From positions 420,001 through 452,000 of the forward strand of contig NC_010546.1 of the NCBI RefSeq assembly GCF_000017845.1: a stretch of 32,000 nt of DNA, given 5' to 3'. Numbering within the stretch: position 1 is the stretch's first letter; every line of letters begins with the position of its first letter. Positions 1 through 31,999 of this stretch are shown here, one piece after another. The notes beneath the pieces are model-generated. The model saw only the letters and a program-made list of their open reading frames with translations, did not search any database and was not told the origin of the DNA. The translations under genes were made by a program, and so were the position numbers. Source of the stretch: Crocosphaera subtropica ATCC 51142. GTDB taxonomy: Bacteria > Cyanobacteriota > Cyanobacteriia > Cyanobacteriales > Microcystaceae.

Positions 1-111
1 GCATGGGGAGTCTTTAGGAGTCAACAGGGTATAAGCTTTCTAATTATTGTTATATTAAGAAATATAAAGACAAGAGAGTAAAAAAAAAGACACAATTGAA
101 ACTAAGCATCA

Positions 112-6844: not shown

Positions 6845-7441
6845 TTACTTACGCTTAGTTGGGATTAAGGTTAAAGTTATCAGTTCTCCTGATTCGTCTA
6901 TTTCTAAAGAATTAATAATATTAATATTTTCATTAGATAAATAATTGATGTTTTCTCTTCCCTCATTTTGTGAAGTATTAGAAACCGTTAATAACGCTGT
7001 TTTTGCTCCTTGAAATAAGCTCAAATTAGTTATCGGAATATTCTCAAGGATTGTCGGTTCTTGATCCTGATCTTGATTAAAAGGAACTGGACGACATTGA
7101 TTATTACTTCGTTGACAAATCACGGTTTCATCAGCCGGAATCAAGACTTGATCTTTAAACTCAATGGATTTAATTTCATTCAAGGGAATACCAGTGGTGT
7201 AACCTTTAAAACTAATAATTAAACTACGATTATTCAAATCAATAAAGTTTCCTGTAGTCATATTTCCTGATTTCAAATAAACCACCGCAAATTCAGGAAA
7301 AGCGACTTGAATTTTTTGATCGAGATGCTCTTCTCTGTTTGGCTGAGACAGTAGCAAAGAGGGTAATATAGGAGTGCTTAAAGCCTTGTTGGGAACTGTT
7401 ATAACTGCACTCATTAATAAGATAGATAATAATCCTTTCAT
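6845..7441 (-). CDS. Hypothetical exported protein
   Basis: The ORF track gives 6845-7465. I prefer the ATG at 7441 because GGAGGAG lies 9 nt upstream and it gives a signal peptide (MKGLLSILLMSAVITVPNKALS). No family recognised. Confidence 0.6.
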   Translation of the reverse strand: MKGLLSILLMSAVITVPNKALSTPILPSLLLSQPNREEHLDQKIQVAFPEFAVVYLKSGNMTTGNFIDLNNRSLIISFKGYTTGIPLNEIKSIEFKDQVLIPADETVICQRSNNQCRPVPFNQDQDQEPTILENIPITNLSLFQGAKTALLTVSNTSQNEGRENINYLSNENINIINSLEIDESGELITLTLIPTKRK

Positions 7442-7641
7442 GCACAAAACTCCTCCAGAAAACAACCATCAGATGATCATAAGAATATGATACACTACCA
7501 CCTTTGATAACAGTGCAAAAATTACTTAGGAGATTTTTGTTTCTTTAATTGTCATTCCGAGGGAACTGGAAAGCTTATCCTTATTAATGTCCTAACCTTG
7601 ATGATACCTACCCAACCCAAACATAATTATTTAGACAACAT

Positions 7642-8214
7642 TTATTCGGAAATAGATTCTAACATTTCCTCACTTCCTTCCGGAATAGAATTTTGAACAA
7701 TATAAGGTAAATCAGCCCCTTTTAATCCTTTTTTAATTCTATCTAAGGTATTTTCAAAGACTACAAATAAAGGATAAACTTTTTCACCCCCTTCACTTAA
7801 CATATGGGCTTCTGTTTGAGGCATTAACCATTCATAATCTTTGTCTAAATGAATTTGAGTCTGTCGCCAACGGCTTAATAAATGGGAAAAATCTTCATGG
7901 GGACGATGAATAAAAATAAGAATTTCTGACCCTAATTTAATTTTCCATTCGGGATCACACATAATAATAGCCAAATCACAAGGTAACTGAATGGCTTCTT
8001 GAATATTGGGGGAAGTTAAACGACTTTCATTTAACGGTTTCGGTTGACGAACTTTTACAACGGGTAAAGGAATGGTAATCAAACTTTCTTCAGGACGACG
8101 TAAACTAGGAATCATCTCTAAATAGGAACGATGCTGCTTTAAGAGGGAAATAGCAGACAAGCGATCGCTATATTCGCATAAAAGTTGTTCGTAATGTGAT
8201 GATTTAATCGACAT
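7642..8214 (-). CDS. Hypothetical soluble protein downstream of pilC
   Basis: 190-aa ORF on the same strand, 88 nt downstream of pilC. No recognisable motifs. The coding call rests on ORF length and position only. Confidence 0.55.
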   Translation of the reverse strand: MSIKSSHYEQLLCEYSDRLSAISLLKQHRSYLEMIPSLRRPEESLITIPLPVVKVRQPKPLNESRLTSPNIQEAIQLPCDLAIIMCDPEWKIKLGSEILIFIHRPHEDFSHLLSRWRQTQIHLDKDYEWLMPQTEAHMLSEGGEKVYPLFVVFENTLDRIKKGLKGADLPYIVQNSIPEGSEEMLESISE

Positions 8215-8302: not shown

Positions 8303-9517
8303 TTACGCCAGTTGGTCGAAAATTTTGAACATGGGTAAGTACATAGAGAGGAGAATAACCCCTACCATACCAGCGATCAACACCATCATTAAAGGTTCAA
8401 TAACACTGGTTAACGCTTTGACTGCTTGTTCTACTTCATCCTCATAGAAATCAGCCACTTTCATCATCATAGCATCGAGTTCTCCTGTTTCTTCCCCGAT
8501 ACAAATCATTTGAATAGCTAACTGAGGAAAAACGTTGGCATTTTGTAGGGCTAAACTCATCATACCCCCTTGTTGAATTTCTGCTTGGGCCCCGGCTACG
8601 GCATTAGCAATGACCTTATTTCCTACGGTGTTACAAACAATTTCTAGGGAAGTTAGAATAGGAACCCCAGAACGAGTTAATGTACCAAATACCCGACAAA
8701 AGCGGGCAACCGCAGACTTTTCATTTAAGTCACCAAAGAGGGGCATTTTCAGGAGAAATTTATCAATTTGTAAGCGACCAACTGGGGTTTTATAATATTG
8801 TTTAATGCCAAAAACTAAGGCAAACCCTCCTACAATAGGAATGAGAATTTTCCAACTACGCATAATACCACTGAGATAAAGCATAAATTGCGTTAAAGCT
8901 GGTAATTCTGCCCCTAAATCTTCAAAGATTCCTGCAAAAACAGGAATCAAGAAAATAGTCATGGCAAAGAAAACAATAACTGCCAAAATACCCACCGTAA
9001 CTGGATAAGCCATAGCGGATTTAATTTGGTTTTGGAGTCGGGCCATATCTTCGAGGAGTTTAGCTAAACGGTTTAATACTTCATCGAGTACCCCCCCAGT
9101 TTCTCCAGCTTCGACCATACTGACATAAAGTTGGTCAAAACAGTCTTCGTGTTTTCCTAAAGCTTCTGATAAACTAACCCCTTGTTGCACTTCTGCGCTA
9201 ATAGCTAATAAAGCTTTTTTCAGTTTAGGATTAGTGGCTTGATCGGCTAAAACCCCTAAACAACGAACAATTGCAACCCCTGCATTAATCATTACAGAAA
9301 ATTGACGAGAAAAGATGGCTTTATCTTTAACACTAACGTTATTTAAAGCTCCTCCTATCCCCGAAAAATCAAATTGCATTCCTGCTTCACTAATTTTTCC
9401 AATAGCAGGATATTGCTGTCTAAGCATAGCTCTGGCTTGATCAGGGGAAGTTGCTTGCACTTTTTGCTTAGAGATTTTTCCTTGTAAGTCTTTAACTTGA
9501 GCAATATAAGTAGGCAT
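8303..9517 (-). CDS. pilC: Type IV pilus platform protein PilC (GspF family)
   Basis: 404 aa with two T2SS-F repeats and three hydrophobic TM segments. The family-typical strings FSRQFSVMINAGV and ARFCRVFGTLTRSGVPIL are present. It starts 39 nt downstream of pilT. Confidence 0.95.
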   Translation of the reverse strand: MPTYIAQVKDLQGKISKQKVQATSPDQARAMLRQQYPAIGKISEAGMQFDFSGIGGALNNVSVKDKAIFSRQFSVMINAGVAIVRCLGVLADQATNPKLKKALLAISAEVQQGVSLSEALGKHEDCFDQLYVSMVEAGETGGVLDEVLNRLAKLLEDMARLQNQIKSAMAYPVTVGILAVIVFFAMTIFLIPVFAGIFEDLGAELPALTQFMLYLSGIMRSWKILIPIVGGFALVFGIKQYYKTPVGRLQIDKFLLKMPLFGDLNEKSAVARFCRVFGTLTRSGVPILTSLEIVCNTVGNKVIANAVAGAQAEIQQGGMMSLALQNANVFPQLAIQMICIGEETGELDAMMMKVADFYEDEVEQAVKALTSVIEPLMMVLIAGMVGVILLSMYLPMFKIFDQLA

Positions 9518-9556
9518 TTTCTTTCATATACAATAAACAGTAATTAACAATGTCAT

Positions 9557-10663
9557 TTAACGACGCACTCTACCCTTAACCGCAGCAGTTGCTCCACTAA
9601 TTAATCGTTGTAACTCATCGGGTTTAGCACTTTTAGAAATGGCTTCTTCAAAGGAAACTGCTCCGCTAACAACCAAGTTAGCTAAGGCTTGTTCCATCGT
9701 TTGCATTCCCAGTTTCATTCCTGTTTGGATCGCCGAATAAATTTGACCAGCTTTCCCTTCTCGCATTAGGTTAGCAATGGCAGGGGTTACAATCATAATT
9801 TCTTGCGCCATCGCCCGACCAAATTCACCAGGCTTCGGGTTCTTTTTCTTCGCTAAACATTGACTAAAAACAGCGATTAAAGAGTTAGATAACATCGCCC
9901 GAATTTGAGCCTGTTGATTAGCAGGAAATACGTCAACAATACGGTCAATGGTACCGGCTGCTGAATTGGTGTGTAACGTTCCAAAAACTAAGTGTCCTGT
10001 TTCTGCTGCGGTGATGGCTAAACTAATGGTTTCTAAGTCTCGCATTTCCCCAACTAAAATGATGTCCGGATCTTCCCGTAAGGAGGCTTTTAAGGCATTG
10101 GCAAAGGACTTGGTGTCTTCTCCTTTTTGTCGTTGATGAAAGAGGCTTTTAACATTAGGAAAAACGTATTCAATCGGATCTTCAACCGTTAAAATATGCT
10201 CTTGTCGAGTACGATTAATTAAGTCTAAAATCGCTGCTAAGGTGGTGGTTTTACCCGATCCGGTTTGTCCCGTCACCAACACCAAACCCCGTGGTCGTTC
10301 AGCCATTTCTCGTACAATATTGGGCAGACCTAACTGTTCAAAATTAGGAATTTTAGAAGATAAAGCCCGTAAACAAGCAGCATAACACCCCCGTTCTTTA
10401 TAAACATTCACCCGAAATCGTGCCAACCCTTTAACCCCATAGGAACAGTCTAATTCCCAGTTTTGTTCTAACTCCTTTCGTTGAGTATTATTGAGCATAC
10501 TGAAAATTAATTTTTGACTTTCTTGAGGAGAAAGGGGTTCTTCATCAATGGGGGCTAGTTTCCCACTAATGCGAAAATAAATCGGCGCACCGGCTTGAAT
10601 GTGCATATCGGAACCCCCCATTTCCACAAGTTGTTCCATTAAGTCTTCAATCATCATATCCAT
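9557..10663 (-). CDS. pilT: Type IV pilus retraction ATPase PilT
   Basis: 368 aa. Walker A GQTGSGKTT, Walker B DPDIILVGEMRD, His box TGHLVFGTLHTNSA, and a PilT signature helix AIANLMREGK (AIRNLIRE type). Confidence 0.95.
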   Translation of the reverse strand: MDMMIEDLMEQLVEMGGSDMHIQAGAPIYFRISGKLAPIDEEPLSPQESQKLIFSMLNNTQRKELEQNWELDCSYGVKGLARFRVNVYKERGCYAACLRALSSKIPNFEQLGLPNIVREMAERPRGLVLVTGQTGSGKTTTLAAILDLINRTRQEHILTVEDPIEYVFPNVKSLFHQRQKGEDTKSFANALKASLREDPDIILVGEMRDLETISLAITAAETGHLVFGTLHTNSAAGTIDRIVDVFPANQQAQIRAMLSNSLIAVFSQCLAKKKNPKPGEFGRAMAQEIMIVTPAIANLMREGKAGQIYSAIQTGMKLGMQTMEQALANLVVSGAVSFEEAISKSAKPDELQRLISGATAAVKGRVRR

Positions 10664-10699
10664 TAGATTTTGCTCCTTAAAATTGAATGAGGTTAGTAA

Positions 10700-12733
10700 T
10701 TAAGTAAATCGAGGAGTCATACAATAGGGACAGTCCATCCACTCCGGTTCAAGTCCTGCATGACAGGTTTTACACTCAAGGGAACTCTTGCGCTTGGCTT
10801 TTAATTCTGCTTCGAGTCCCGTATCTGTAAACGTCACCCGTTCCACTTCTTCAAGGGTGGTATGACCTTCTTGAACCAGTTGTAAACTGTAAGCAAGGAT
10901 GGTGATCATTCCTTCTTCGACAGCTGCTTCCTTAATGCGATCAGTGGTTGCTCCTTCGTTAATAAGGCTTTGAATCCGTTCGGTATTACGCATCACTTCA
11001 TAAACCCCAACCCGTCCCTTATAGCCACTACCGCCACATTTTTCGCACAGGGTACCATTTTGTTTGGCTTCAGTAATTTCGTCTGCGGTTAATTTATTCG
11101 CCTTATAAATAGTCATTTCATCATCATTAGAAGCCGACAAGCCAAAACGGGCTAATTCGGCTTTAGTAGGATGATAAGCAACACGACATTCACTACATAC
11201 CCGACGCATTAACCGTTGCGCTAACACCCCTAATAACGCTCCAGAAATCATAAAGGGTTCAACCCCCATTTCATCGAGACGAGCAACCGCTCCTGGTGCA
11301 TCGTTGGTGTGTAGGGTGGTTAAAACTAAGTGTCCTGTTAAGGCTGCTTCAATAGCGGTTTTTGCTGTTTCTACGTCCCTGGTTTCCCCCACCAGGATAA
11401 CGTCGGGATCTTGTCGCATGAATGCCCGTAAAATAGAGGCGAAGTTCATGCCTTTTTCTCGAATCACCTGCACCTGAGTAATACCGGGTAAAGAATATTC
11501 GATAGGATCTTCGGCAGTGCTAATATTGACCCCCGGATTATTTCTTTCAGCTAAGACAGAATACAAACTGGTAGATTTACCCGAACCCGTTGGTCCAGTG
11601 ACGAGAAAGAGGCCAAACGGACGACTCGCCAAGTCTCGTACAATTTGTAAGGTTTCTTGGTTGGTAATGAGTTTATCTAAGCCTAATTGAGTGGCCGAGT
11701 TATCTAAGATCCGTAAACAGACTTTTTCTCCATACCGACTGGGTAAGGTATTAACCCGAAAATCCACTTTTCGACCTTGATAAATGCGTCGAATCTTACC
11801 ATCTTGAGGAAGACGACGTTCGGCAATATCGAGGTCCGCCATAATTTTAAACCGTGCTACTACCGCCGGGGTGACTTTTCGGGGTAGGGGATCAAAGGCT
11901 TGTTGCAGTACCCCATCTTTACGGAAACGAATTCTTAAGGTTTCTTCTTGGGGTTCAACATGAATGTCGGAAGTGCCTTCTTGGAGAGCTTTGGCGAGGA
12001 TTTTATTGACTAAGTTAATAATGGGTGCTTGATCAGCATCATTGGAGTCTAAGGCATCGTGACTTTCATCTTCGGCATCAGAGATGCTGGCATCTAGGTT
12101 ACCAACGATGGCTGTCAGATCAGCCATTTTATTCATGGCCGCCTCTTGTTTGAGACGTTCATTTTCTGCATCAATCTCCCCTTGAAGTTCATGATACTGT
12201 TCTAATAAGCGATCATAATCTTCTTGGGTAATGACCATGCGCCGTAACTCTAGGTTTTTCGCCCTCAAAATACGGTTTAAGTCATCTTGGGCTGCTAGGT
12301 TATCGGGGTCAACCATCGCCACTAACACGGAAGGGGGTTCCCCGCCATGTTGAGATAAAGGTAAAATTCTATGGCGACGACAAATATCAAAAGAAATTAA
12401 TGAATTGATTAATTCAGCCATCTGGCGATCCGCGACAGGAGAGACTTCGGGATCGATAGAGTCGACACCATAAAGGATTTTCAGTTCAAATAAATGATGT
12501 TTTTTATATTGTCGTAATAAATCGGGGGATAAGGGTTCCCCAGTCATCACCTGTAACACTTCAGTTAAAGGACGACCGCTTTTACGGGTTTCGACTAGGG
12601 CTTGTTTCATCTGATCCGGGCCTACATAACCCGCTTCGATCAGTTTGTTGCCAAAGGGTGAAAAGTAATTACGCAGGGCAACCGCCCGACTGCGTTTGGA
12701 AGAAGACAAATTGGAAGAAGACAAAGAGGACAT
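10700..12733 (-). CDS. pilB: Type IV pilus extension ATPase PilB (GspE family) with an extra C-terminal Cys4 tail
   Basis: 677 aa. N-terminal GspE-N/MshEN-like domain (FGNKLIEAGYVGPDQMKQALVE), Walker A GPTGSGKST, Walker B DPDVILVGETRD, His box TGHLVLTTLHTNDA, and the family tetracysteine CSEC...CEKC. There is an additional terminal CKTC-x10-CPYC. Confidence 0.95.
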   Translation of the reverse strand: MSSLSSSNLSSSKRSRAVALRNYFSPFGNKLIEAGYVGPDQMKQALVETRKSGRPLTEVLQVMTGEPLSPDLLRQYKKHHLFELKILYGVDSIDPEVSPVADRQMAELINSLISFDICRRHRILPLSQHGGEPPSVLVAMVDPDNLAAQDDLNRILRAKNLELRRMVITQEDYDRLLEQYHELQGEIDAENERLKQEAAMNKMADLTAIVGNLDASISDAEDESHDALDSNDADQAPIINLVNKILAKALQEGTSDIHVEPQEETLRIRFRKDGVLQQAFDPLPRKVTPAVVARFKIMADLDIAERRLPQDGKIRRIYQGRKVDFRVNTLPSRYGEKVCLRILDNSATQLGLDKLITNQETLQIVRDLASRPFGLFLVTGPTGSGKSTSLYSVLAERNNPGVNISTAEDPIEYSLPGITQVQVIREKGMNFASILRAFMRQDPDVILVGETRDVETAKTAIEAALTGHLVLTTLHTNDAPGAVARLDEMGVEPFMISGALLGVLAQRLMRRVCSECRVAYHPTKAELARFGLSASNDDEMTIYKANKLTADEITEAKQNGTLCEKCGGSGYKGRVGVYEVMRNTERIQSLINEGATTDRIKEAAVEEGMITILAYSLQLVQEGHTTLEEVERVTFTDTGLEAELKAKRKSSLECKTCHAGLEPEWMDCPYCMTPRFT

Positions 12734-13247: not shown

Positions 13248-14807
13248 TTACTCTTCTGTTTTATCTTTTACCCCTCGAACAATACGGGATAATTCGCTTT
13301 TCTCATCTACCGTAATGCGACTGGGAGAACCACTAATAATCCGTTCGTAATTACGGAAGGAATCTTGAATGATAGGACCATCTTGATTGATCATGTATTC
13401 TCGAATGCCTTTATCATGCCATGATCCTCGCATTTTAAACACATTAATCGCCCGTGACATTTCTCCACGAATTTCTACATATTGCAACATTAAAATAGTG
13501 TCTGTAATGGTAGAAATATGGGATTCAGTGATAGAGTGGGCCCCCATAAATTGGTCAGTTGTATTGGTAAAGAACCCAGTAATTTCTTCTTGTTTAGCGT
13601 ATCCTGTCACTCCAATCACGAATTGACGGAACGCATTATTAGTAACCCCTCTAGCTAAAGCAGATAAAGAATCAATAGCAATTCTAGAAGGTTTGAATTC
13701 CGAAATTTCTGACTTAATAATTTGTAAATGGTCTTCAAGACCAGCAGATTCGGGATAGGTACATAATAGTTTTAAGAGTCCTTTTCTCTCCATTTCTTCA
13801 AAGTCAATACCCCAAGAAAAGGCATTCCGAGATAATTGGGCCCTAGACTCTTCGTAGGCGAATAAAATTGCTCTTTCTCCTTGACGACAACCCTCTTCTA
13901 AAAACTTACTCACTAATAAAGTTTTGCCCGTTCCAGTTGCTCCTGTGGCTAAAATAATAGAGTCTTTAAAGAACCCTCCCCCACACATTTCATCTAAGGT
14001 TTCAACACCCGAAGAAATTCGAGCATTGGATGATCGTTGTGTTAATCTCATCGCCCCCAATGGGAAGATATTAATGCCATCATTGGTAATAGTAAAAGGA
14101 TATTCTCCTTTCATGTGGGTTGTTCCCCGTAACTTGAGAATTTCAATGGTACGACGACGACGTTCCCCTTCCAATACATTGCGGAGGATAAGAACATTAT
14201 CAGAAACGAATTCTTCGACTCCAAAACGAGCAATTTGTCCATATTCTTCTACCCGTTCTGTGGTTAAAATCGAGGTAACCCCTAACTGTTTTAAACGGGC
14301 AACCAGGCGAAAAATTTCCCGTCTCACCACAGATGCAGCATCGTATTGTTGAAAAACTGCAGTCACAGAATCAATCGAGACTAGCTTAGCTTTGTATTTA
14401 TGAATAGCGTATTGTATCCGTTCAATTAAAGCGGACAAATCAAAATTTCCTACCACTTCTTGTCCTTCGGGATCAGGGGACGCATCCAAAATAAACAATT
14501 GACCTTCATCGATTAATTTTTGTAAATCCCAACCAAAACTATAGGCATTTTCAATAATATCATGGGGGGATTCCTCAAAGGTAACAAATAGTCCAGGATA
14601 ATCAAAATATTTAATACCATGATATAAAAATTGCACAGCTAAAAGGGTTTTTCCTGTTCCCGATGTTCCACTGGCTAATGTTGTTCTTCCTAAAGGTAAT
14701 CCTCCATGGGTAATTTCGTCTAATCCTTCAATCATTGTCCGAATTTTGCGAACACCTTTAGGGGCTAATGGTTGTGGTTGATTTTCACGGGGAAGAGGTT
14801 GATTCAT
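13248..14807 (-). CDS. kaiC: Circadian clock protein KaiC
   Basis: 519 aa with duplicated RecA-like halves. Walker A motifs GTSGTGKT and GATGTGKT, catalytic EE pairs (FVTFEES, LFAYEES), and the phosphosite segment HISTITDTILMLQYVEIRGEMSRAINVFKMRGSWHDKGIREY. A C-terminal tail is present. Confidence 0.98.
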   Translation of the reverse strand: MNQPLPRENQPQPLAPKGVRKIRTMIEGLDEITHGGLPLGRTTLASGTSGTGKTLLAVQFLYHGIKYFDYPGLFVTFEESPHDIIENAYSFGWDLQKLIDEGQLFILDASPDPEGQEVVGNFDLSALIERIQYAIHKYKAKLVSIDSVTAVFQQYDAASVVRREIFRLVARLKQLGVTSILTTERVEEYGQIARFGVEEFVSDNVLILRNVLEGERRRRTIEILKLRGTTHMKGEYPFTITNDGINIFPLGAMRLTQRSSNARISSGVETLDEMCGGGFFKDSIILATGATGTGKTLLVSKFLEEGCRQGERAILFAYEESRAQLSRNAFSWGIDFEEMERKGLLKLLCTYPESAGLEDHLQIIKSEISEFKPSRIAIDSLSALARGVTNNAFRQFVIGVTGYAKQEEITGFFTNTTDQFMGAHSITESHISTITDTILMLQYVEIRGEMSRAINVFKMRGSWHDKGIREYMINQDGPIIQDSFRNYERIISGSPSRITVDEKSELSRIVRGVKDKTEE

Positions 14808-14899
14808 GACTGCTTTATAATCGTTTTATAATTAACTTAAAAGTGTGATAGTTTATGGAAAATTGAAAGCGAAACCTTGAATCGAATCGGACTATTTTT

Positions 14900-15220
14900 T
14901 TAGGGATCGTTTTCCCGTTCTTTGATTTCTTCATAGAGAAGATCCAAGCCAATTAAGACCTTTTCCCTATCGGAAAGATCCCCAATAATTTTACGGACAG
15001 GAGGGGGTAAAATTTTAGCTAAGGTTGGGGTAGCTAAAATTTTATCTTCCTCGGCCAGTTGTGGATTTTTCAAAACATCAATAACTTTCAAGGCATACAC
15101 CCCTTTAAATTCATCTTCGAGAATATTTTTTAAGGTTTTTAAAGCTCGCACGGAATTAGGGGTATTACCAGCGACGTAGAGTTTGAGAACATAGGTTTTT
15201 TTGAAGTCAATCATGGCCAT
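14900..15220 (-). CDS. kaiB: Circadian clock protein KaiB
   Basis: 106 aa. The sequence [90 protein letters not shown] is canonical KaiB. The ATG at 15214 is an alternative start. Confidence 0.97.
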
Positions 15221-15306
15221 CTATAAAGGAGGATCATCTGAAAACATATCTAGGGTTTAAGCACAATAAGATTGATCTTAGTAATATTGTATAATGTTTG
15301 ACTACT

Positions 15307-16203
15307 TTAATCGATTTGATTTAATAAATCAAAAAGTAAATCCCCTCTGGGAATGCAACGGCGATACATTTCTCCCAAATGAGCCAAAATGTCAATAATG
15401 GTTAAGCGATAGTCTAAAAGAATTTCTTCACTTCGTCCTTCTAATTTCAGTTGCTGAGAAAATTCGTCCATCAATTCCATATGAATTTCTAACACCCGAG
15501 AAACGGAAATATCGGCGAAGAAAGCTTGATTAACAAATTGATCAATAGCTTGATTTACCTCTGAATCTTCGTCAAAATAATTTAAAATTATTTCTCGATA
15601 ATTTGCCATTAATTCTTTCAGTAATTCTCGTTTATCCTCTGGAGAAAGATTACGATAAAAATACTTAGGATTGCGCTTATAATAAACTCCCAAATAACCT
15701 AATCTTTCTTTTAGTTTTTCGGCTAAACGACGCTGTTGCAGGAGCAAAAAACTTTGGTTTTTTTCTGTACCGATGTCCCGTTGAGAAGACAGGGATTGAT
15801 CCGTTAGAAAACAACTCGGTCCTAGATGTAAAAACTTGGTAATGGCACGATCAATGGTTACTTGAATCTCATCCAATTCCTTAACCCGATAACGCACTTC
15901 AGCACTATGATATAAAAACGTGGGAGGTTCAACATTGTCCGAAGATTCTACCTTGTCCTCAAAAATAATAACGGGTACGAGGGTTCCTTGTTCATAGAGT
16001 TGATTGAATAGGGGGAGAATAGAGGGTTCCTGTTTAACAATCAGACAATCTATGGTTTCACTATGATCTTCCAAGAAAGGCACCAAGTCTTCGAGTTGAT
16101 CGATAATATGTAAACGATAGCGATCGCCACTCAGATGATGGGTCAATAACTGGGTGAGATGTTCATCGCTGCTATAAAGACAAATTGAGAGTCGGGTTTG
16201 CAA
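15307..16203 (-). CDS. kaiA: Circadian clock protein KaiA (full length)
   Basis: 298 aa. N-terminal pseudo-receiver plus the C-terminal KaiA domain VLEIHMELMDEFSQQLKLEGRSEEILLDYRLTIIDILAHLGEMYRR. Confidence 0.96.
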   Translation of the reverse strand: MQTRLSICLYSSDEHLTQLLTHHLSGDRYRLHIIDQLEDLVPFLEDHSETIDCLIVKQEPSILPLFNQLYEQGTLVPVIIFEDKVESSDNVEPPTFLYHSAEVRYRVKELDEIQVTIDRAITKFLHLGPSCFLTDQSLSSQRDIGTEKNQSFLLLQQRRLAEKLKERLGYLGVYYKRNPKYFYRNLSPEDKRELLKELMANYREIILNYFDEDSEVNQAIDQFVNQAFFADISVSRVLEIHMELMDEFSQQLKLEGRSEEILLDYRLTIIDILAHLGEMYRRCIPRGDLLFDLLNQID

Positions 16204-19139: not shown

Positions 19140-19601
19140 ATGACTCAGGAGTGGATAAACGTGACGGGAATTATCACTAAAGGCCATCAAGTTGCTTCAG
19201 GAATGGCTAAAGATAGTCCTTATCCGCAAGGAACCATTCAAATGCAAACCCCTTTCTTTCAACAATTAGGATTAGATATTTCCCTTTTTTTTTCAGGAAC
19301 TTTAAACATTAATATTCGTCCTTATAAATTTAAACTGTACAATCCTCAATATACCTTTAAAGCTGTAAAATGGAATGCTCATTCTCCAGCAGAAACCTTC
19401 TCTTTTTCTTCTTGTCAGGTTATTCATCGAAAAACTAAATATACAGGACTCATTTACTATCCCCATCCTGAAACAAAACCTAACCATTTTCAAGACGATT
19501 CAACCCTCGAAATTTTAACCCAACCCCTTGATTATCTTGAATATGGTCAATCAATACAACTCAATTTGAATCCTACAGAAATTGATATTTTCTTCGATTA
19601 G
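19140..19601 (+). CDS. DUF120 / archaeal-type (CTP-dependent) riboflavin-kinase-like beta-barrel protein
   Basis: 153 aa. The pattern G-x-I-x-x-G-x-x-x-x-S-G ... F-x-x-LG ... GTLNI, and later YPHPETKPNH...LEIL, resembles the archaeal RibK/DUF120 family as I recall it. A GTG at 19161 with AGGAG 9 nt upstream is a plausible alternative start. The function is not established. Confidence 0.7.
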   Translation: MTQEWINVTGIITKGHQVASGMAKDSPYPQGTIQMQTPFFQQLGLDISLFFSGTLNINIRPYKFKLYNPQYTFKAVKWNAHSPAETFSFSSCQVIHRKTKYTGLIYYPHPETKPNHFQDDSTLEILTQPLDYLEYGQSIQLNLNPTEIDIFFD

Positions 19602-20957: not shown

Positions 20958-21356
20958 CTAACAGATATGGCCACTCAATACCTCTTGAGCTAAATTACAA
21001 GTTAAGGGACAAGCAGCGTAAATAGAAGTGTGAGAGGGAGTTGCTTCGCCGTGCAGCCATCTCAACCAATGAACATCTTGGGGATGAATTCCTTTAACAG
21101 TTAGTAGTGCTGCTCCCAAGAAAACCACTAATAAATTAACACCAATCAAGGAACCAACCACTAATAAAACAGCACTTACCGGTAAAACGGATTGTAAAAC
21201 AACTGATGCTAAAGCCCCAAAAGTTGCCATTAAAACAACCAGGGGAAACCCAACGACTAATAAACAAACGATTAAAGTAAAACTCCAAACTAAGAAGCTC
21301 TTAACGAACGTTAAAGAGTCAACTTTACCTAATTCGGTTTTTTGTACAATTTCCAT
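20958..21356 (-). CDS. Hypothetical integral membrane protein
   Basis: 132 aa with about three hydrophobic helices (FLVWSFTLIVCLLVVGFPLVVLMATFGALASVVL..., LLVVGSLIGVNLLVVFLGAALL). It has a Cys/His/Trp-rich C-terminal tail (HWLRWLHGEATPSHTSIYAACPLTCNLAQEVLSGHIC). No family recognised. Confidence 0.6.
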   Translation of the reverse strand: MEIVQKTELGKVDSLTFVKSFLVWSFTLIVCLLVVGFPLVVLMATFGALASVVLQSVLPVSAVLLVVGSLIGVNLLVVFLGAALLTVKGIHPQDVHWLRWLHGEATPSHTSIYAACPLTCNLAQEVLSGHIC

Positions 21357-21845: not shown

Positions 21846-23189
21846 ATGACCCAGTCTCAACGCCCCTCCTTACCCCCTTTACCCCCTCCTCCCATCCCTC
21901 CTGTTAACGACTTTCAAGAAGCCAGCACGGACATGATGGAGATAGCAAAAGCATCAGAAAATGATGGAGCAACCCAGTTTATTCCCGCTTCTTCCATCAC
22001 CACCGAGTCACAAAGTTCGGCCAAACTAGCACAGGCTCCAACCGTCCCTAAACCCCCTATTGAGTCAGCAATACCGGCACCACCCCCCTTACCGACAACA
22101 CCCCCTAGAGGTTTTGGTCGTTCTCCTGGTCAACCCACTTTAGCCGAGTTAGTTCGTCATGCCTTTGATGAAGGGTTTTCTGATATTCACTTAGGGGTAG
22201 GAGAAAAACCCCGAATGCGCGATCGCGGAGAAATGGTGATTTTAGAATATCCAGACATCGACGAAAACACCTTTATGAGTTGGTTAAGGGAAATTCTCAA
22301 AGAAGACGAAATTCAACGCTTTAAAAAAGAATTAGAATTCGATGGGGCAACCCAGTACGACTTTGCCAGGGTTCGGATCAACATTTTCGATAGTTTACGG
22401 GGACCGGCGATGGTTCTGCGTCTCATTCCCCTGAAAATCTTGACCATGGAACAGTTACGCTTACCCATGATCTTTAAAGATATTTCCGATGCTCATAAAG
22501 GGTTAATTCTGGTCACAGGGCCGACTGGTTCAGGTAAATCTACCACTATGGCCGCTATGGTGGACTACATTAACAAAGAACATCCTAAACATATCATTAC
22601 CATTGAAGATCCGGTGGAATTTGTTCACCAAAGTCGTCGCTCTTTAATTAAACAAAGAGAAGTGGGGATGCACACCCTGAAGTTTGATAATGCTCTCAAA
22701 GCAGCCTTACGGGAAGATCCTGATATCATTCTAGTGGGGGAAATGCGGGACAAAGAAACGGTGAATACCGCCCTCAAAGCAGCCCAAACCGGTCACTTAG
22801 TCATGGGAACCCTCCATACCAATAGTGCGGTGAAAACCCTAGAACGGATTTTAAGCTTATATAATGCTGAAGAACGGGAAGCCATGCGGGTGGCGATCGC
22901 AGAATCTTTAGTGGCTATTATTGCTCAAGGGTTGTGTCGTACAACGGACGGAAAACGGGCTGCTTATCACGATATTTTGATCAATACAGAAACCATCAAA
23001 GATTATATTATCCAAGGGAAAAACGATGAGATTCTCGAATTAATGAAGGATGGTGAATTCGATGGGATGATTACCACCAACCAAGCCTTATTTAATCTCT
23101 ATCAAGAGGGACGCATTACTGAAGAAACGGCTTTAGAATTATCCCCAACCCCCAATGAAATTGCTATGATGTTAAGGGGTCGAATCTAG
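21846..23189 (+). CDS. pilT2: PilT-family ATPase paralogue (PilT2-like) with a proline-rich N-terminal extension
   Basis: 447 aa. Walker A GPTGSGKST, Walker B DPDIILVGEMRD, His box TGHLVMGTLHTNSA. Residues 1-97 are Pro/Ser/Thr-rich low complexity (PSLPPLPPPPIPP, PAPPPLPTTPP). The PilT signature helix is divergent (TIKDYIIQGK). AAGGAAG lies 4 nt upstream of the ATG. Confidence 0.9.
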   Translation: MTQSQRPSLPPLPPPPIPPVNDFQEASTDMMEIAKASENDGATQFIPASSITTESQSSAKLAQAPTVPKPPIESAIPAPPPLPTTPPRGFGRSPGQPTLAELVRHAFDEGFSDIHLGVGEKPRMRDRGEMVILEYPDIDENTFMSWLREILKEDEIQRFKKELEFDGATQYDFARVRINIFDSLRGPAMVLRLIPLKILTMEQLRLPMIFKDISDAHKGLILVTGPTGSGKSTTMAAMVDYINKEHPKHIITIEDPVEFVHQSRRSLIKQREVGMHTLKFDNALKAALREDPDIILVGEMRDKETVNTALKAAQTGHLVMGTLHTNSAVKTLERILSLYNAEEREAMRVAIAESLVAIIAQGLCRTTDGKRAAYHDILINTETIKDYIIQGKNDEILELMKDGEFDGMITTNQALFNLYQEGRITEETALELSPTPNEIAMMLRGRI

Positions 23190-23288: not shown

Positions 23289-24050
23289 ATGGCCGAAACA
23301 ACAAGGGTTGTACCGGAGTTGTTTAAGGGTATCGCCCTTTTTACCCCAGGTGGTGATCTCGTTTATTGTGTCGATAACAACAAACAAGTCCATTGGCATT
23401 CTCAATTATGCCTAGTTTTACAGGAATTATTAAAGTTACCAGAACCCCCTCATTTCCTGGTTCCTGGTTACACGGCAACCATTGATCGTTGGTTTTGTAC
23501 CAGAGAGAAAAGGGTCAAAACAGTTGCTGAGGTTTATCCTGCCGTTCGTCGGTACGAACCGTTATTAAATGTTCTTTTTAATGTGAAGGACGTGGTTTGG
23601 ACAACAGCCAATTGGCAAGAAGAGGTTTGTGATCCAGTTGTCATTGAAACCTATCGTTCTCAGTTTCCTCAACTTTGGGAAAACCATGATTTGCTAGTGC
23701 GTTTAGATGAACGTTGGGAACAGGAGCTAAAAACTCAATTTAATCCTGTCGAGACTCAGAAAAAAGATGAATTTGAAACCAATCAAGGCTATATTTTACG
23801 TCTTTTTGTTTCCGGTCATCACCCTTCCACTAAGCAAACGTTAAAAAAGATCCATCATCTCCTCGAAACCCAGTTAAGTCATCCTTATACCTTAAAAGTT
23901 ATCGATATTGCTAAACACCCAGAAATGGCCGAAACCCACCATGTTTCTGCAACGCCTACCTTGGTGCGTGTTTGGCCGAAACCGACAAGACGGATTGTCG
24001 GAGAATTGACAGATTTATCTAGGGTTCTACAACTGATCACCACAAATTAA
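23289..24050 (+). CDS. Elongated KaiB-domain protein (unassigned ~166-aa N-terminal region plus C-terminal KaiB/thioredoxin-like domain)
   Basis: 253 aa. Residues 167-253 (YILRLFVSGHHPSTKQTLKKIHHLLETQLSHPYTLKVIDIAKHPEMAETHHVSATPTLVRVWPKPTRRIVGELTDLSRVLQLI) align without gaps to the KaiB at 14900-15220. By hand, 34 of 83 positions are identical. Confidence 0.88.
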   Translation: MAETTRVVPELFKGIALFTPGGDLVYCVDNNKQVHWHSQLCLVLQELLKLPEPPHFLVPGYTATIDRWFCTREKRVKTVAEVYPAVRRYEPLLNVLFNVKDVVWTTANWQEEVCDPVVIETYRSQFPQLWENHDLLVRLDERWEQELKTQFNPVETQKKDEFETNQGYILRLFVSGHHPSTKQTLKKIHHLLETQLSHPYTLKVIDIAKHPEMAETHHVSATPTLVRVWPKPTRRIVGELTDLSRVLQLITTN

Positions 24051-24112: not shown

Positions 24113-24433
24113 ATGGATACTCTCAATTTGGCAACAATAGCCACCTTAATTTACGGAATTTTATTGCTTCTCGGTGGCATTATGGGTTATGTTACCGCTA
24201 AGAGCAAACCTTCTTTAATTTCTGGCGTTCTTAGTGGTTTGCTCTTATTACTGAGTGCTTTTTTTCAATGGCAGCAAATATCAGTTGGGCTGATTTTGGC
24301 TCAAATCTTAACTCTTATTCTTGCCATCGTCTTTGGAATCAGATTCTGGAAAACCCGAAAATTTATGCCAGCCGGGTTAATGTTAGGGATCAGTGTGGCT
24401 ATGTTGACAATTTTGTTCCAAACAACCAGTTAA
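24113..24433 (+). CDS. TMEM14/UPF0136-like small membrane protein
   Basis: 106 aa with four hydrophobic helices. The N-terminal string IYGILLLLGGIMGYVTAKSKPSLISG is typical of the TMEM14 family. Confidence 0.75.
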   Translation: MDTLNLATIATLIYGILLLLGGIMGYVTAKSKPSLISGVLSGLLLLLSAFFQWQQISVGLILAQILTLILAIVFGIRFWKTRKFMPAGLMLGISVAMLTILFQTTS

Positions 24434-24819
24434 GCCAAGGTTTCGGGACAATAACCTAATCCTCTGGTAAATTGTTGACGGAATGCCTCAATATCACTGC
24501 TATCAGGGGATCCATGAGAAACAATAGCCACTTGATAACGACTCATGACATCGATAGGAGATTGACCGGTTTCGAGACTCCAGAACACCATTTGTAAGCG
24601 AATTTCCAATTCGTAAGGAATACCTAATTCATTCATAAAGGCCTTAAAATTCCCGTGTTCTTCTGGAGTTAAGGGTTGTTTAAATTTAATTTTGATAATC
24701 CAACCATTAATTTGATGAATCACAGTCATCGAGCAAAGGGATGAATCATACTTTCGTTGTAGATATTCAATCACCCGTAAAGTCAAACTTGCATTGGCTA
24801 AAAAATAAATATAGTCCAT
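24430..24819 (-). CDS. Hypothetical protein
   Basis: 129-aa ORF that converges on the TMEM14-like gene with a 4-nt overlap. It is divergent from queA. No family recognised. Confidence 0.5.
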   Translation of the reverse strand: MDYIYFLANASLTLRVIEYLQRKYDSSLCSMTVIHQINGWIIKIKFKQPLTPEEHGNFKAFMNELGIPYELEIRLQMVFWSLETGQSPIDVMSRYQVAIVSHGSPDSSDIEAFRQQFTRGLGYCPETLA

Positions 24820-30238: not shown

Positions 30239-31999
30239 TTAAGATTTCTGAGCCTCTTCGATATGGAAACGTTCCACAGAAGCCAATAAATCACGGGAAA
30301 TTCCTACTAGATTTTGTAACGATCCTGCTACCCGTTGAGATTCTTGGGATGTTTCTTGTGCAGTTAATTCCACAGACTGCATAACTTGACTCACTGCCTT
30401 AGAATTTTCCTGTTGTTGAATGGTATCCCCTGTAATGGATCGCACTAAGGTATTAATGTGATTGGATACGTCAATAATATCTTCTAAAGAACGTTTCGCC
30501 TGTTCTGATTTATCCGTTACATCGATTACCTGCTGAATCCCTTCTTCCATTGCTGTCATTACCGAACCGGTTTCACTTTGAATTTGTAGTACGATTTGCT
30601 CAATTTCTTTCAATGATTTTGCCGAACGATCAGCTAACTGACGAACTTCATCAGCTACGATGGCAAAGCCTCGTCCTGCTTCTCCTGCTCTAGCTGCTTG
30701 AATTGACGCATTAAGAGCCAATAAGTTCGTTCTTGAAGCAATTTGAGAAATTAACGCTACAATCTTTGAGATTTCTTGAGATGCTTCCGCTAACCGTTTT
30801 ACTTTACGAGTGGTTTCTGATACCGTTTCTCGAATTTGCAGAATACCAGCTACTGTTCGCTCTACCGCTTCACCCCCTTTGAGAGCGGTTACGGAGGAGG
30901 TGTGGGCAACTTCTTCAGCTTCACGGGCGTTTTCTGCCACCCGTTGAATCGATTCAGTCATCACCTGTACCGAATTTAAGGTGACGGCTAATTCTTCTGC
31001 CATTCGCAGAGCATCACGGGAATTATTGCGAGCAAATAATTCACTATCCGTTGAACTTTTATTAACCTGTTTTGCAGTTCGTTTTACCTGGGCGACAATT
31101 TCCCGTAGATTGTGGATGGTTAAGTTAAAGGCATCTGCCACCGCCCCTAATACGTCAGCCGTTACCTCTGCTTCTACAGTTAAATCTCCCCTAGCAGCCC
31201 CCTCTACATCATCCAAAAGGCGAATCACTTGCCGTTGCAACTCTTCTCTCGCTTGTTCCATTTCTGCAGCCCGTTGTTGGGCTTCGCTGGTGGTGGTGAG
31301 GATAACACGGGATAATTGGTTAAAATTATAGGATAATTGCCCTAATTCATCTTCGGAGTAAATGGTGGCCTTTACATTGTAGTCACCCCCATACATTGAA
31401 CCAAACTGAGTCTGGAGATCCGCAATGGTGCGTTTTAGGTGGTAGGAAGCGATCAGGCCAAAAAACAGTGTTCCCCCAAATCCGACTAAACCCCCTGTTA
31501 AGGCTAGTAACAAGATAGGGTCACCAGATTTAGCTTGTTTCTTGTTGTTTGGAGTAGATGGAGATTGTTGAGAGGCCTGTCCAGTTGCTTGTAACGGGTT
31601 CGTATTGTTCTCAGACGTTTCTACCTTGTCTGCTGTGGATTTTTTATCCACCACTTTAGTCGATTCTGCTTGAGGAGAAATTAACCAAGCGAAGCCACTC
31701 ACCAGCAGAATAGCCACAAAAGAAACGATACCTGTGCTTCCGGCGGCCATCCACGGTTTTAAGTTTAAAGGTGCATTATGGAACCAACCTAAATAGCCTT
31801 GTTTTGCTTCAACAGTGGGTTTGATGACTTTAGTCTCACTATTGGACAAAGAACTATGGGCCATGTCATCAGATTTTACCCAATTAACAGTTTGTGATCC
31901 TTGTTCAGATAAAAGATCCCCCGTTTGTAAACCGAGACTACCACTGAGATCCTCGCTGGCTTGACTGAACAGATCAGAATCAGGTAACTGATCGCTCAT
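30239..31999 (-). CDS. Methyl-accepting chemotaxis protein, PilJ/HmpD-like (may be 5'-truncated by the window edge)
   Basis: At least 586 aa. The ORF stays open to within one base of the window end, so the ATG at 31999 is only a candidate start. It has two TM segments (about residues 84-107 and 161-186), HAMP-like helices, and the conserved MCP signalling hairpin [37 protein letters not shown]. Confidence 0.9.

Follow-up and report, generated by a model that had tools for sequence, protein, structure and literature searches.

The elongated KaiB of Crocosphaera subtropica next to pilT2: a KaiB domain predicted to be fold-switched and its possible role as a KaiC docking module

What does an elongated KaiB protein do? 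The question is raised by a gene, here termed eKaiB (cce_0435, 'kaiB3'), in a stretch of 32,000 nucleotides of the Crocosphaera subtropica ATCC 51142 genome (contig NC_010546.1, positions 420,001 to 452,000; hereafter the window), with an open reading frame extending from an ATG at 23289 to a TAA at 24048-24050 (Table 1). The encoded protein is 100% identical to 'circadian clock protein [Crocosphaera subtropica ATCC 51142]' and the published qPCR primer for kaiB3/cce_0435, tccatcatctcctcgaaacc, is found at approximately 23850. The Pfam family PF07689 (KaiB) matches residues 171-249 with model positions 1-79 of 82 (89.9 bits at a cut-off of 27; E 8.7e-26), and the protein scores below the cut-offs of the NCBIfam equivalogs for canonical KaiB (75.9 versus 145.3 for TIGR02654; 76.5 versus 110 for NF006798).

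A class termed elongated KaiB or 'KaiB-4' has reportedly been described by Dvornyk, and with its 253 aa, an N-terminal domain conserved among 120 homologs and a KaiB1-like domain at the C-terminus, the Crocosphaera protein corresponds to the description of this class. Such elongated KaiB proteins of approximately 250 aa, with an N-terminal extension of approximately 150 aa without known domain, have been found in cyanobacteria only (PMC5520375). Equally, the named eKaiB homologs and the related loci listed here are all cyanobacterial with the exception of one MAG contig labelled Candidatus Gracilibacteria. Not only is cce_0435 a member of a published class and already named, but the natural occurrence of a KaiB domain fixed in the fold that binds KaiC has also been published, in 2023, with the KaiB domain of the Thermosynechococcus eKaiB found by NMR to be stable, monomeric and fold-switched (Wayment-Steele et al.; PDB 8UBH; PMC10808063). 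This NMR analysis was done on the isolated domain of the ortholog; in a full-length protein, the balance between the folds could be altered by the N-terminal domain or by a binding partner. To find cce_0435 once more adds little; the interest lies in what elongated KaiB does.

Table 1. Features of the window relevant to eKaiB (position 1 is the first letter of the window)
Feature	Position	Strand	Description
kaiC	13248..14807	-	presumed partner system; kaiABC span 13248..16203
kaiB1, canonical	14900..15220	-	presumed partner system
kaiA	15307..16203	-	presumed partner system, ~7 kb from eKaiB
orf132	20958..21356	-	small membrane protein, His/Cys-rich C-terminus; divergent from pilT2
pilT2 (PilT2 ATPase)	21846..23189	+	TIGR01420 475.6 bits versus 319.1; Pfam T2SSE; directly upstream of eKaiB
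eKaiB (cce_0435, 'kaiB3')	23289..24050	+	253 aa + stop
N-terminal domain, residues ~9-140	23313..23708	+	cyanobacteria-specific, highly conserved
Cys41 codon TGC	23409..23411	+	invariant; one helical turn past invariant His37
Cys114 codon TGT	23628..23630	+	nearly invariant, 116/120
Linker, residues 141-166	23709..23786	+	sequence and length vary; disorder predicted
KaiB domain, residues 167-253	23787..24047	+	Pfam; predicted thioredoxin-like fold-switched state
beta-2 edge strand YTLKVID, residues 200-206	23886..23906	+	essentially invariant
alpha-2 helix, residues 211-216	23919..23936	+	KaiC B-loop contact segment in canonical fold-switched KaiB
Codons Gln248, Leu249, Ile250, Thr251	24030..24041	+	aligned with Ile88, Gly89, Leu90, Asp91 of T. 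elongatus KaiB

The KaiB domain, its predicted fold and its surfaces

An earlier note on this DNA had proposed, on the basis of a gapless pairing with the canonical KaiB, that the Gly and Asp of the LIGLD motif are replaced by Leu249 and Thr251 and that the protein ends early without the acidic C-terminal tail. Both observations hold. The codons 24033-24035 and 24039-24041 read CTG (Leu249) and ACC (Thr251), and a MAFFT alignment in which 120 eKaiB homologs were combined with 8UBH and three canonical KaiBs, and which is independent of the gapless pairing, leaves the two positions in place: Leu249 is aligned with Gly89 and Thr251 with Asp91 (T. elongatus numbering), without gaps in this region. 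Among the 120 homologs, position 249 is occupied by I/L/V/M/A and never by G, and position 251 mostly by T/S/A and also by L/G/R, with D outside the six commonest residues. Position 248, the equivalent of Ile88 and thereby of a third site at which the fold-switched state can be stabilised, is a Gln in 102 of the 120. Equally, the early end is general: 95 of the 120 homologs terminate at one column and nearly all others are only 1-3 residues longer, while canonical KaiBs extend 10-15 residues past the common end; the Crocosphaera protein ends with ...LSRVLQLITTN at the column of Leu93. The determinants of the canonical ground state, Ile88, Gly89, Asp91 and the acidic tail, are missing in eKaiB throughout the 120 homologs. 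In canonical KaiB, G89A/D91R (KaiBfs-cryst) and, in a further variant, I88A stabilise the fold-switched protein (PMC6378743; bioRxiv 10.1101/2020.06.17.158394), in agreement with the locking effect of G89/D91 substitutions to which the earlier note had pointed.

From the loss of these determinants, and from structural modelling, the KaiB domain of the Crocosphaera eKaiB is predicted to rest permanently in the fold-switched form. For residues 168-251, modelling by AlphaFold2 with an alignment of 94 family members gives a beta-alpha-beta-alpha-beta-beta-alpha topology (E168-174 H179-195 E200-206 H211-216 E224-229 E234-237 H243-251). In Foldseek comparisons, the domain model matches the fold-switched KaiB 5jwr_B over the whole domain (TM 0.86, rmsd 1.6 A) and 8ubh (TM 0.81), as opposed to ground-state KaiB, which is matched at a TM of approximately 0.4 and over the first ~45 residues only. 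The best PDB sequence match of eKaiB is equally 8UBH, with an E value of 1e-20 for the single sequence and of 5.7e-30 for the family profile, which gives 107.7 bits to 8UBH and at most 99.3 bits to canonical KaiBs; in overall identity (47-49%), canonical KaiB and 8UBH (48%) are equally near to the domain. The suggestion of a constitutively fold-switched, SasA-like state thereby stands as a prediction, carried by the homology to 8UBH and by the model for residues 167-253.

The surfaces which canonical KaiB uses to contact its partners can be traced in eKaiB, with the interface residues of KaiB taken from secondary sources. Beta-2 of the fold-switched canonical KaiB binds KaiA and the pseudo-receiver of CikA (PMC6378743). 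The corresponding strand of eKaiB is conserved at every position (Y200 in 120, T201 in 118, L202 in 120, K203 in 118, V204 in 113, I205 in 114 and D206 in 119 of 120 homologs) and includes with Lys203 the counterpart of the KaiA-contacting Lys (Lys43, T. elongatus numbering). In alpha-2, which in canonical fold-switched KaiB faces the B-loop of the KaiC CI domain, all 120 homologs have P211, A214 and E215 in common with the PQLAEE of canonical KaiB. On the other hand, beta-2 has a Thr in place of Ala41 and alpha-2 shows no conservation of Glu56/Asp57/Lys58, so that eKaiB may differ from KaiB1 in its choice of partners. The lateral salt bridges between neighbouring KaiB molecules formed by R23, K26, E84 and D91 give rise to cooperative 6:6 binding; SasA is without such lateral cooperative contacts (PMC6769508). 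In eKaiBs, the counterparts 183, 186 and 244 are variable and 251 is mostly T/S/A (n=120). Because the salt-bridge residues of the six-monomer assembly are not conserved, the predicted binding of eKaiB to KaiC is probably non-cooperative.

The N-terminal domain, the linker and the genes around eKaiB

The N-terminal domain is characterised by the conserved block fKGIALFTPgGDl.Yc.D..Kq..WH..LC...EpPHFLvPgYTAT.DrW...FpqLWe.hdLi and is modelled by AlphaFold2 with a pLDDT of 87 and a pTM of 0.81 as a succession of b-b-a-b-b-a-b-a-a-b elements. As had been stated previously, the N-terminal 166 aa are without assignment: whole-protein scans (E <= 1) gave no Pfam or NCBIfam match for residues 1-166, a search of the family profile against all PDB sequences gave no match to the N-terminal domain, and its model had no Foldseek match in the PDB at E <= 0.001 and none in BFVD. 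A faint resemblance to Roadblock/longin domains, also raised by the earlier note, is abandoned, as the confidently modelled domain finds no PDB match at this threshold and no Roadblock, MglB or longin occurs among the 50 Foldseek matches listed. Likewise set aside is a relationship to ADF-H/cofilin, whose best Foldseek matches, at a TM of 0.36, are too weak. As Nostocales with elongated KaiB also possess a truncated KaiA (Schmelling et al.; PMC5520375), a displaced KaiA pseudo-receiver was considered; the hhalign comparison with the KaiA of the window gave a probability of 0.85% and this candidate was rejected. Residues 1-143, compared by phmmer with 1.84 billion representative proteins, recovered only 48 cluster representatives; a KaiB domain is present in those which extend to the C-terminal side, and most others look like fragments. 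One of the 48 is a 942-aa repeat-like match to a 36-residue stretch.

The four cysteines noticed early on in the N-terminal region are C27, C41, C70 and C114, of which only C41 (120/120) and C114 are conserved; the alignment of 94 sequences shows no variation at W36, H37 and C41, and H55 is present in >90%. Between the two domains, the linker has a pLDDT <50 at residues 152-165, is extended in homologs by as many as 135 aa inserted at position 153 and shows a dN/dS of 0.98 between two endosymbiont orthologs.

The gene directly upstream is a pilT2, as judged from its pilT_fam score and from the proline-rich N-terminus MTQSQRPSLPPLPPPPIPP... of its product, a feature that defines PilT2 (PMC12288463; PMC4390875). 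In 66 of 77 informative loci from many genera, pilT2 is located directly upstream of eKaiB on the same strand at a distance of approximately 15-580 bp, and a homolog of orf132 (132 aa, without Pfam or NCBIfam family) is found upstream of pilT2 on the opposite strand in 53 of 80 loci. Other neighbours of eKaiB in the window recur in at most 5 of the 80 loci, a sample which is rich in Nostocales and hence does not consist of independent samples. The arrangement of pilT2, eKaiB and orf132 is conserved across cyanobacterial orders. No paper joining KaiB and PilT2 emerged from a literature search and, by title and abstract, this gene pair is not the subject of the listed cyanobacterial papers which mention both KaiB and PilT; the conserved pair seems not to have been reported previously. 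In a promoter and terminator scan, matches in the window were no commoner than in shuffled sequence, and none was located between pilT2 and eKaiB. The window equally contains a separate pilB-pilT1-pilC cluster (8303..12733); its nearness to kaiABC is not conserved in Gloeothece, Microcystis and the endosymbionts and is treated as lineage-specific.

The genomes of diatom endosymbionts allow the fate of these genes to be followed during reduction of the locus. In the symbionts of R. gibberula and Epithemia (uoEpiScrs1), kaiA, kaiB1, kaiC and eKaiB are intact and pilT2 is a remnant, with a dN/dS for eKaiB of 0.09 in the KaiB domain and of 0.24 in the N-terminal domain, figures whose weight depends on whether pilT2 was lost before or after the symbionts separated; orf132 is intact in endosymbionts (dN/dS 0.115). 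In the symbiont of R. fuxianensis, most of kaiA has been lost by truncation, kaiB1 is gone and eKaiB is broken with its KaiB domain deleted, with kaiC remaining intact. Altogether, three endosymbiont genomes and Sphaerospermopsis L050 have a pilT2 that decayed in place, and approximately 10 other loci possess an intact eKaiB without pilT2 next to it. In the endosymbionts examined, purifying selection acts on eKaiB in all cases with an intact kaiABC despite the decay of pilT2, and in one genome only eKaiB decays together with kaiA and kaiB1. This pattern speaks for a link of eKaiB with the Kai oscillator, and against an obligatory one with PilT2. As an obligate partner of PilT2, eKaiB was rejected, as pilT2 decayed in place while eKaiB remained under purifying selection.

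Proposed role and competing explanations

We consider it moderately probable that eKaiB is a SasA-like, non-cooperative KaiC docking module which tethers the N-terminal domain and serves as a clock adaptor or modulator. The KaiB domain, predicted to be locked in the fold-switched form, would dock on KaiC as a putative permanent docking module, a role that is plausible for it; the flexible linker of variable length would then bring the N-terminal domain to KaiC at a set phase of the clock, so that eKaiB would act as adaptor or modulator and not as a timer. More tentatively, the client of the N-terminal domain in most species might be the PilT2 encoded just upstream, a link by which the function of type IV pili would be tied to clock time, with eKaiB having in addition a role independent of PilT2. 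From the conserved gene arrangement, the survival of eKaiB without pilT2 and its co-decay with kaiA and kaiB1, binding to KaiC is predicted to come first and PilT2 to be a frequent but dispensable client. Against this explanation speak the position of the extension, N-terminal in eKaiB versus C-terminal in SasA, which may bear on the steric fit to the CI ring, and the basis of the fold state, which is homology at 48% identity together with AlphaFold, whose treatment of KaiB fold states is disputed.

A more specific proposal, which appears rather unlikely, is that eKaiB connects the output of the clock as an adaptor to the machinery of type IV pili, with the KaiB domain on night-state KaiC and the N-terminal domain, which might also bind orf132, on PilT2. 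If true, the phase of the clock would gate PilT2 in its activity or location at the post-translational level, and thereby also the retraction of pili, motility or DNA uptake; functions would be assigned to two orphan proteins, PilT2 and the N-terminal domain of eKaiB, and a second SasA-independent physical output from KaiC would be recognized. The literature offers no plausible explanation for the sole reported phenotype of a PilT2 mutant.

It is equally doubtful that eKaiB tunes the oscillator by competing with or, at low dose, nucleating KaiB1 on KaiC, whereby it may also trap KaiA via the invariant beta-2 including Lys203. In vitro, locked KaiB and SasA recruit KaiB cooperatively when dilute and compete when concentrated (bioRxiv 10.1101/2020.06.17.158394), the fate of eKaiB tracks kaiA/kaiB1 in the endosymbionts, and KaiA is truncated in Nostocales with elongated KaiB (Schmelling et al.; PMC5520375). 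Such tuning would leave the conserved pilT2-eKaiB gene pair unexplained, and the lateral KaiB-KaiB contacts required for cooperative recruitment are not conserved. As part of this explanation, in which eKaiB could be an input sensor instead of an output adaptor, the N-terminal domain would perceive a signal, for example redox via Cys41/Cys114 with His37/His55, and modulate the tuning; the invariance of C41 and H37 and the high conservation of C114 and H55 are compatible with such a function, but no cofactor or redox motif was identified. Docking on KaiC is needed by the tuner and by the tethering module alike, so that the two explanations overlap.

Improbable is a regulator or partner of PilT2 independent of KaiC, with the KaiB fold co-opted to dock on another hexameric ATPase. 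The short gaps and wide distribution of the gene pair, the absence of a terminator-like site between both genes in the window and the presumed regulatory nature of PilT2 (PMC12288463; PMC4390875) would be in line with such a function, for which the KaiC-like ArlH, reported to act with the secretion-family ATPase ArlI in the archaellum, is a precedent. However, pilT2 is decayed or not adjacent in the genomes named above, both domains of eKaiB are under purifying selection without it, and the residues in which eKaiB agrees with canonical KaiB belong to the surfaces for KaiC and KaiA, with the B-loop being a feature of KaiC.

Very improbably, the domain is still metamorphic and remains a timer, with a ground-state-like fold populated by the full-length protein or under cellular conditions and switched by a signal, as could be read from the only moderate pLDDT (58-73) of its C-terminal, switching half, from the ground state which single-sequence AlphaFold2 gave for the Thermosynechococcus ortholog (PMC10808063) and from its equal nearness to canonical KaiB and 8UBH, but not reconciled with the NMR of this ortholog, which detected one folded state, fold-switched and monomeric, besides a minor unfolded state (PMC10808063), with the family-wide substitution of all three locking positions and the missing tail, or with ground-state structures covering only the first 45 residues of the model.

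Comparison with known Kai proteins

Among the described systems, the docking module proposed here is best compared with the KaiB-4 of T. vestitus (8UBH), which is like the Crocosphaera protein in length, N-terminal extension, KaiB1-like C-terminal domain and the fold-switched topology predicted for the latter, with 48% identity between the KaiB domains and no essential difference. KaiB1 encoded in the same window belongs to the same Pfam family and is 42% identical over the domain; the two proteins have beta-1, beta-2, the start of alpha-2 and the ATPTL and P-P-RR-I-G motifs in common. In contrast to KaiB1, eKaiB carries Gln/Leu/Thr in place of Ile88/Gly89/Asp91, is without acidic tail and conserved lateral salt bridges, possesses the additional N-terminal domain and is encoded away from kaiC, adjoining pilT2. 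The KaiB of Legionella pneumophila (Lpp1115, 4KUN), encoded by a kaiBC operon outside the cyanobacteria for which a role in stress response has been implied (PMC10808063), has a natural fold-switched crystal form to which the eKaiB model corresponds with a TM of 0.82; unlike eKaiB, it is a single-domain protein and it is 29% identical. SasA, finally, equally joins a KaiB-like domain of thioredoxin fold to another module (Foldseek match 6x61, TM ~0.7) and is equally without the lateral cooperative contacts of KaiB. In sequence, eKaiB is far nearer to KaiB than to SasA (E 1e-20 versus 3e-05), and, whereas SasA is a histidine kinase with its module at the C-terminus, eKaiB has no HisKA or HATPase domain, matches NF006800 with the KaiB-like part only (45.3 bits versus 342) and carries its module at the N-terminus. 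With these differences, SasA is the best analogy for the putative mode of action of eKaiB.

An elongated KaiB of the KaiB-4 class

The source strain of the window is Crocosphaera subtropica (Cyanothece) ATCC 51142, and the 253-aa product of the eKaiB reading frame is 100% identical to the protein of ATCC 51142, with a published qPCR primer for kaiB3, cce_0435, falling within the frame. Pfam assigns residues 171-249 to a KaiB domain (E 8.7e-26), the protein scores far below the NCBIfam equivalog thresholds set for circadian KaiB, and residues 1-166, unassigned in the earlier note, are without a Pfam or NCBIfam match. An "elongated KaiB" of about 250 aa, closest to KaiB1, has been described, with a ~150-aa N-terminal extension that is highly conserved in cyanobacteria, absent elsewhere and without recognisable domain (Schmelling et al., PMC5520375). 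Its KaiB domain, KaiB-4, has been predicted to prefer the fold-switched state, and the Thermosynechococcus vestitus KaiB-4 was found by NMR to be stably folded, monomeric and fold-switched (8UBH; Wayment-Steele et al., PMC10808063). Among PDB sequences, both the window eKaiB (E 1e-20) and the family profile (107.7 bits, canonical KaiBs reaching at most 99.3) match 8UBH best, which is 48% identical to the window's KaiB domain and 59-65% to other family members. The window eKaiB is a member of this known class, and the main interpretation of the earlier note, a fold-switched KaiB domain, is probably right, yet already published.

In an AF2 model built from 94 family sequences, residues 168-251 adopt the topology beta-alpha-beta-alpha-beta-beta-alpha. 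The structure comparison of residues 167-253 proposed previously gave whole-domain Foldseek matches to fold-switched KaiB bound to KaiC CI and KaiA (5jwr_B; TM 0.86, rmsd 1.6 Å, 85 columns), Legionella KaiB (TM 0.82), 8UBH (TM 0.81) and the SasA N-terminal domain (TM ~0.7), whereas ground-state KaiB (2qke, 1vgl) aligned over 45 residues only (TM ~0.4). Since pLDDT in the switching half is moderate (58-73) and the handling of KaiB by AlphaFold is disputed, the model is read as agreement with NMR, not as independent proof. NMR has established the fold state for the T. vestitus ortholog only; together with the predicted topology it points to a fold-switched KaiB domain in the window protein.

The replacement of the gating residues Gly89 and Asp91 (T. 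elongatus numbering) by Leu249 (codon 24033-24035) and Thr251 (codon 24039-24041) had been read from a gapless alignment; both codons are correct, as are the C-termini quoted for KaiB1 and eKaiB, and the stated role of G89/D91 in fold switching agrees with the literature (bioRxiv 10.1101/2020.06.17.158394; PMC6378743). When 120 eKaiB homologs were aligned by MAFFT with 8UBH and three canonical KaiBs, the pairing came out the same, free of gaps. Among the homologs, position 249 is I/L/V/M/A and Gly in none, position 251 is T/S/A in most, with Asp outside its six commonest residues, and 95 of the 120 end at one and the same column. Position 248, the column of Ile88, is Gln in 102/120; I88A also locks KaiB in the fold-switched state (bioRxiv 10.1101/2020.06.17.158394; PMC6378743). 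Judged by these columns, loss of the ground-state determinants is a family-wide trait of eKaiB.

The N-terminal domain and the linker

The N-domain is modelled with the element order b-b-a-b-b-a-b-a-a-b, and its invariant residues include P20, G22, D23, D29, K32, W36, H37, C41, P54, F56 and W130. Four Cys are present as reported, with C41 invariant, C114 found in 116/120 homologs, and C27 (89/120) and C70 (18/120) not conserved. A phmmer search of 1.84 billion representatives returned 48 N-domain matches in all; those with a C-terminal part have a KaiB domain, most others are fragment-like and one is a repeat-like protein of 942 aa. Equally, the family profile matched PDB sequences in the KaiB part only, Foldseek of the N-domain model against PDB and BFVD gave no significant match, and hhalign against KaiA was negative. 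Because these sequence and fold searches found no relative, the previously raised resemblance to Roadblock/longin domains is unsupported.

The linker evolves neutrally (dN/dS 0.98 between two endosymbiont orthologs), and some homologs have it lengthened by inserts that reach 135 aa; 70-135 extra residues at the residue-153 position are seen in P0089 (390 aa), P0090 (380 aa), P0076 (359 aa) and P0112 (349 aa).

Gene neighbourhood

Features of the window and of eKaiB
Feature	Position	Strand	Remarks
eKaiB (kaiB3)	23289..24050	+	253 aa
N-domain of eKaiB	residues ~9-140		AF2 alone: pLDDT 87, pTM 0.81
Linker of eKaiB	residues 141-166		disordered in AF2 model
KaiB domain of eKaiB	residues 167-253		
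pilT2	21846..23189	+	PilT-family ATPase, proline-rich N-terminus; 99-bp gap to eKaiB, no terminator-like site
orf132	20958..21356	-	predicted membrane protein, 132 aa
kaiA-kaiB1-kaiC	13248..16203	-	canonical cluster; kaiC 13248-14807 adjoins pilB cluster
pilB, pilT1, pilC	8303-12733	-	677, 368, 404 aa; directly after kaiA-kaiB1-kaiC, same strand
Methyl-accepting chemotaxis protein	30239-31999	-	HAMP + MCP signalling domain, 586 aa; near window end
orf129	24430-24819	-	no Pfam or NCBIfam family; homologs in 5/80 loci
orf153	19140-19601	+	no Pfam or NCBIfam family; homolog in 1/80 loci
Two further ORFs	6845-7465, 7642-8214	-	no Pfam family

A proline-rich N-terminus defines cyanobacterial PilT2 (PMC12288463; PMC4390875). 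In a Nostoc-rich sample of 80 genome loci collected via the N-domain, 77 with sufficient upstream sequence, pilT2 lies immediately 5' of eKaiB on the same strand in 66/77 (gaps approx. 15-580 bp, median ~170) and an orf132 homolog occurs in 53/80, in every case divergent from pilT2; other window neighbours each recur in at most 5. Besides relatives of Crocosphaera, the sample covers Microcystis, Xenococcaceae, Spirulina, Coleofasciculus, Symploca, Moorena, Leptolyngbyaceae, Stenomitos and numerous Nostocales, the pilT2-eKaiB pair being kept across cyanobacterial orders, and we found no paper mentioning it. Synteny of eKaiB with pilT2 and orf132 is evident at the level of gene order, and suggests a functional PilT2 link. 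orf132, whose conserved C-terminus is rich in His and Cys (HPQDVHWLRWLHGEA.PSH...CPLTC) and which has no Pfam or NCBIfam family, may form one functional unit with eKaiB.

Both PilT paralogs, pilus motor, clock and eKaiB reside inside 16 kb of the window. The kaiC-pilB adjacency was not found in Gloeothece, Microcystis and the endosymbionts and is thus probably lineage-specific. The chemotaxis protein might serve pilus-based taxis as a receptor of the PilJ/Tax type. The four Pfam-less frames (orf129, orf153 and the two further ORFs) encode 129-206 aa.

Loss of pilT2, apparent clock decay and a putative docking function

Spheroid-body endosymbionts of rhopalodiacean diatoms are non-photosynthetic and derived from the Crocosphaera lineage of the window. 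Those of R. gibberula and Epithemia (uoEpiScrs1) possess full kaiA, kaiB1 and kaiC, intact eKaiB and orf132, and a C-terminal remnant only of pilT2. Comparison of the two gives dN/dS values of 0.09 (KaiB domain), 0.24 (N-domain) and 0.115 (orf132); orf132 and both eKaiB domains are under purifying selection without pilT2. In the R. fuxianensis symbiont (CP191495.1; locus L083, 7351-10563) kaiC is intact, kaiA is down to the N-terminal 119 aa, the pseudo-receiver part, kaiB1 is undetectable, and eKaiB (locus L088, 2817-3249) is broken by a stop in the N-domain and deletion of the KaiB domain; all four genes persist in sister symbionts. The R. fuxianensis case has the look of a clock in the course of decay, and in this single case the fate of eKaiB tracks the KaiA/KaiB1 oscillator.

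Remnants of pilT2 of differing erosion directly 5' of eKaiB (L081 5670-5864, L082 5739-5864, L088 2372-2769, L050 7542-7877), in three diatom endosymbionts and Sphaerospermopsis kisseleviana, indicate repeated, independent loss. In free-living lineages such as Scytonema, Sphaerospermopsis, Calothrix, some Nostoc and Phormidium lacuna, pilT2 is also missing from, or decayed at, the place beside intact eKaiB, and such loci, in symbionts and free-living strains, show that eKaiB can do without PilT2; that eKaiB is a KaiC-independent PilT2 partner is quite improbable. Residual metamorphism of the KaiB domain is, next to the family-wide gating columns, very improbable. A role of eKaiB as oscillator tuner or sensor is considered unlikely.

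Best supported is that eKaiB would be a SasA-like module, permanently fold-switched and docking non-cooperatively on KaiC, and that it would tether the conserved N-domain and have PilT2 as a frequent yet dispensable client. In canonical fold-switched KaiB, helix alpha-2 touches the B-loop of KaiC, strand beta-2 is the pairing site for KaiA or the CikA pseudo-receiver, and R23/K26 pair with E84/D91 of the adjacent KaiB, from which cooperative 6:6 assembly results; SasA is without these lateral residues and binds non-cooperatively (PMC6378743; PMC6769508). Across the eKaiB family, the beta-2 residues Y200 T L K V I D206 are near-invariant and P211, A214 and E215 of alpha-2 are invariant, so both surfaces are conserved by alignment, and lateral positions 183, 186, 244 and 251 are variable or replaced. 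This pattern is consistent with KaiC binding and with its being non-cooperative: as in SasA, the eKaiB domain would dock on a KaiC-type surface without forming a KaiB ring, its beta-2 edge free to be offered to a third party.
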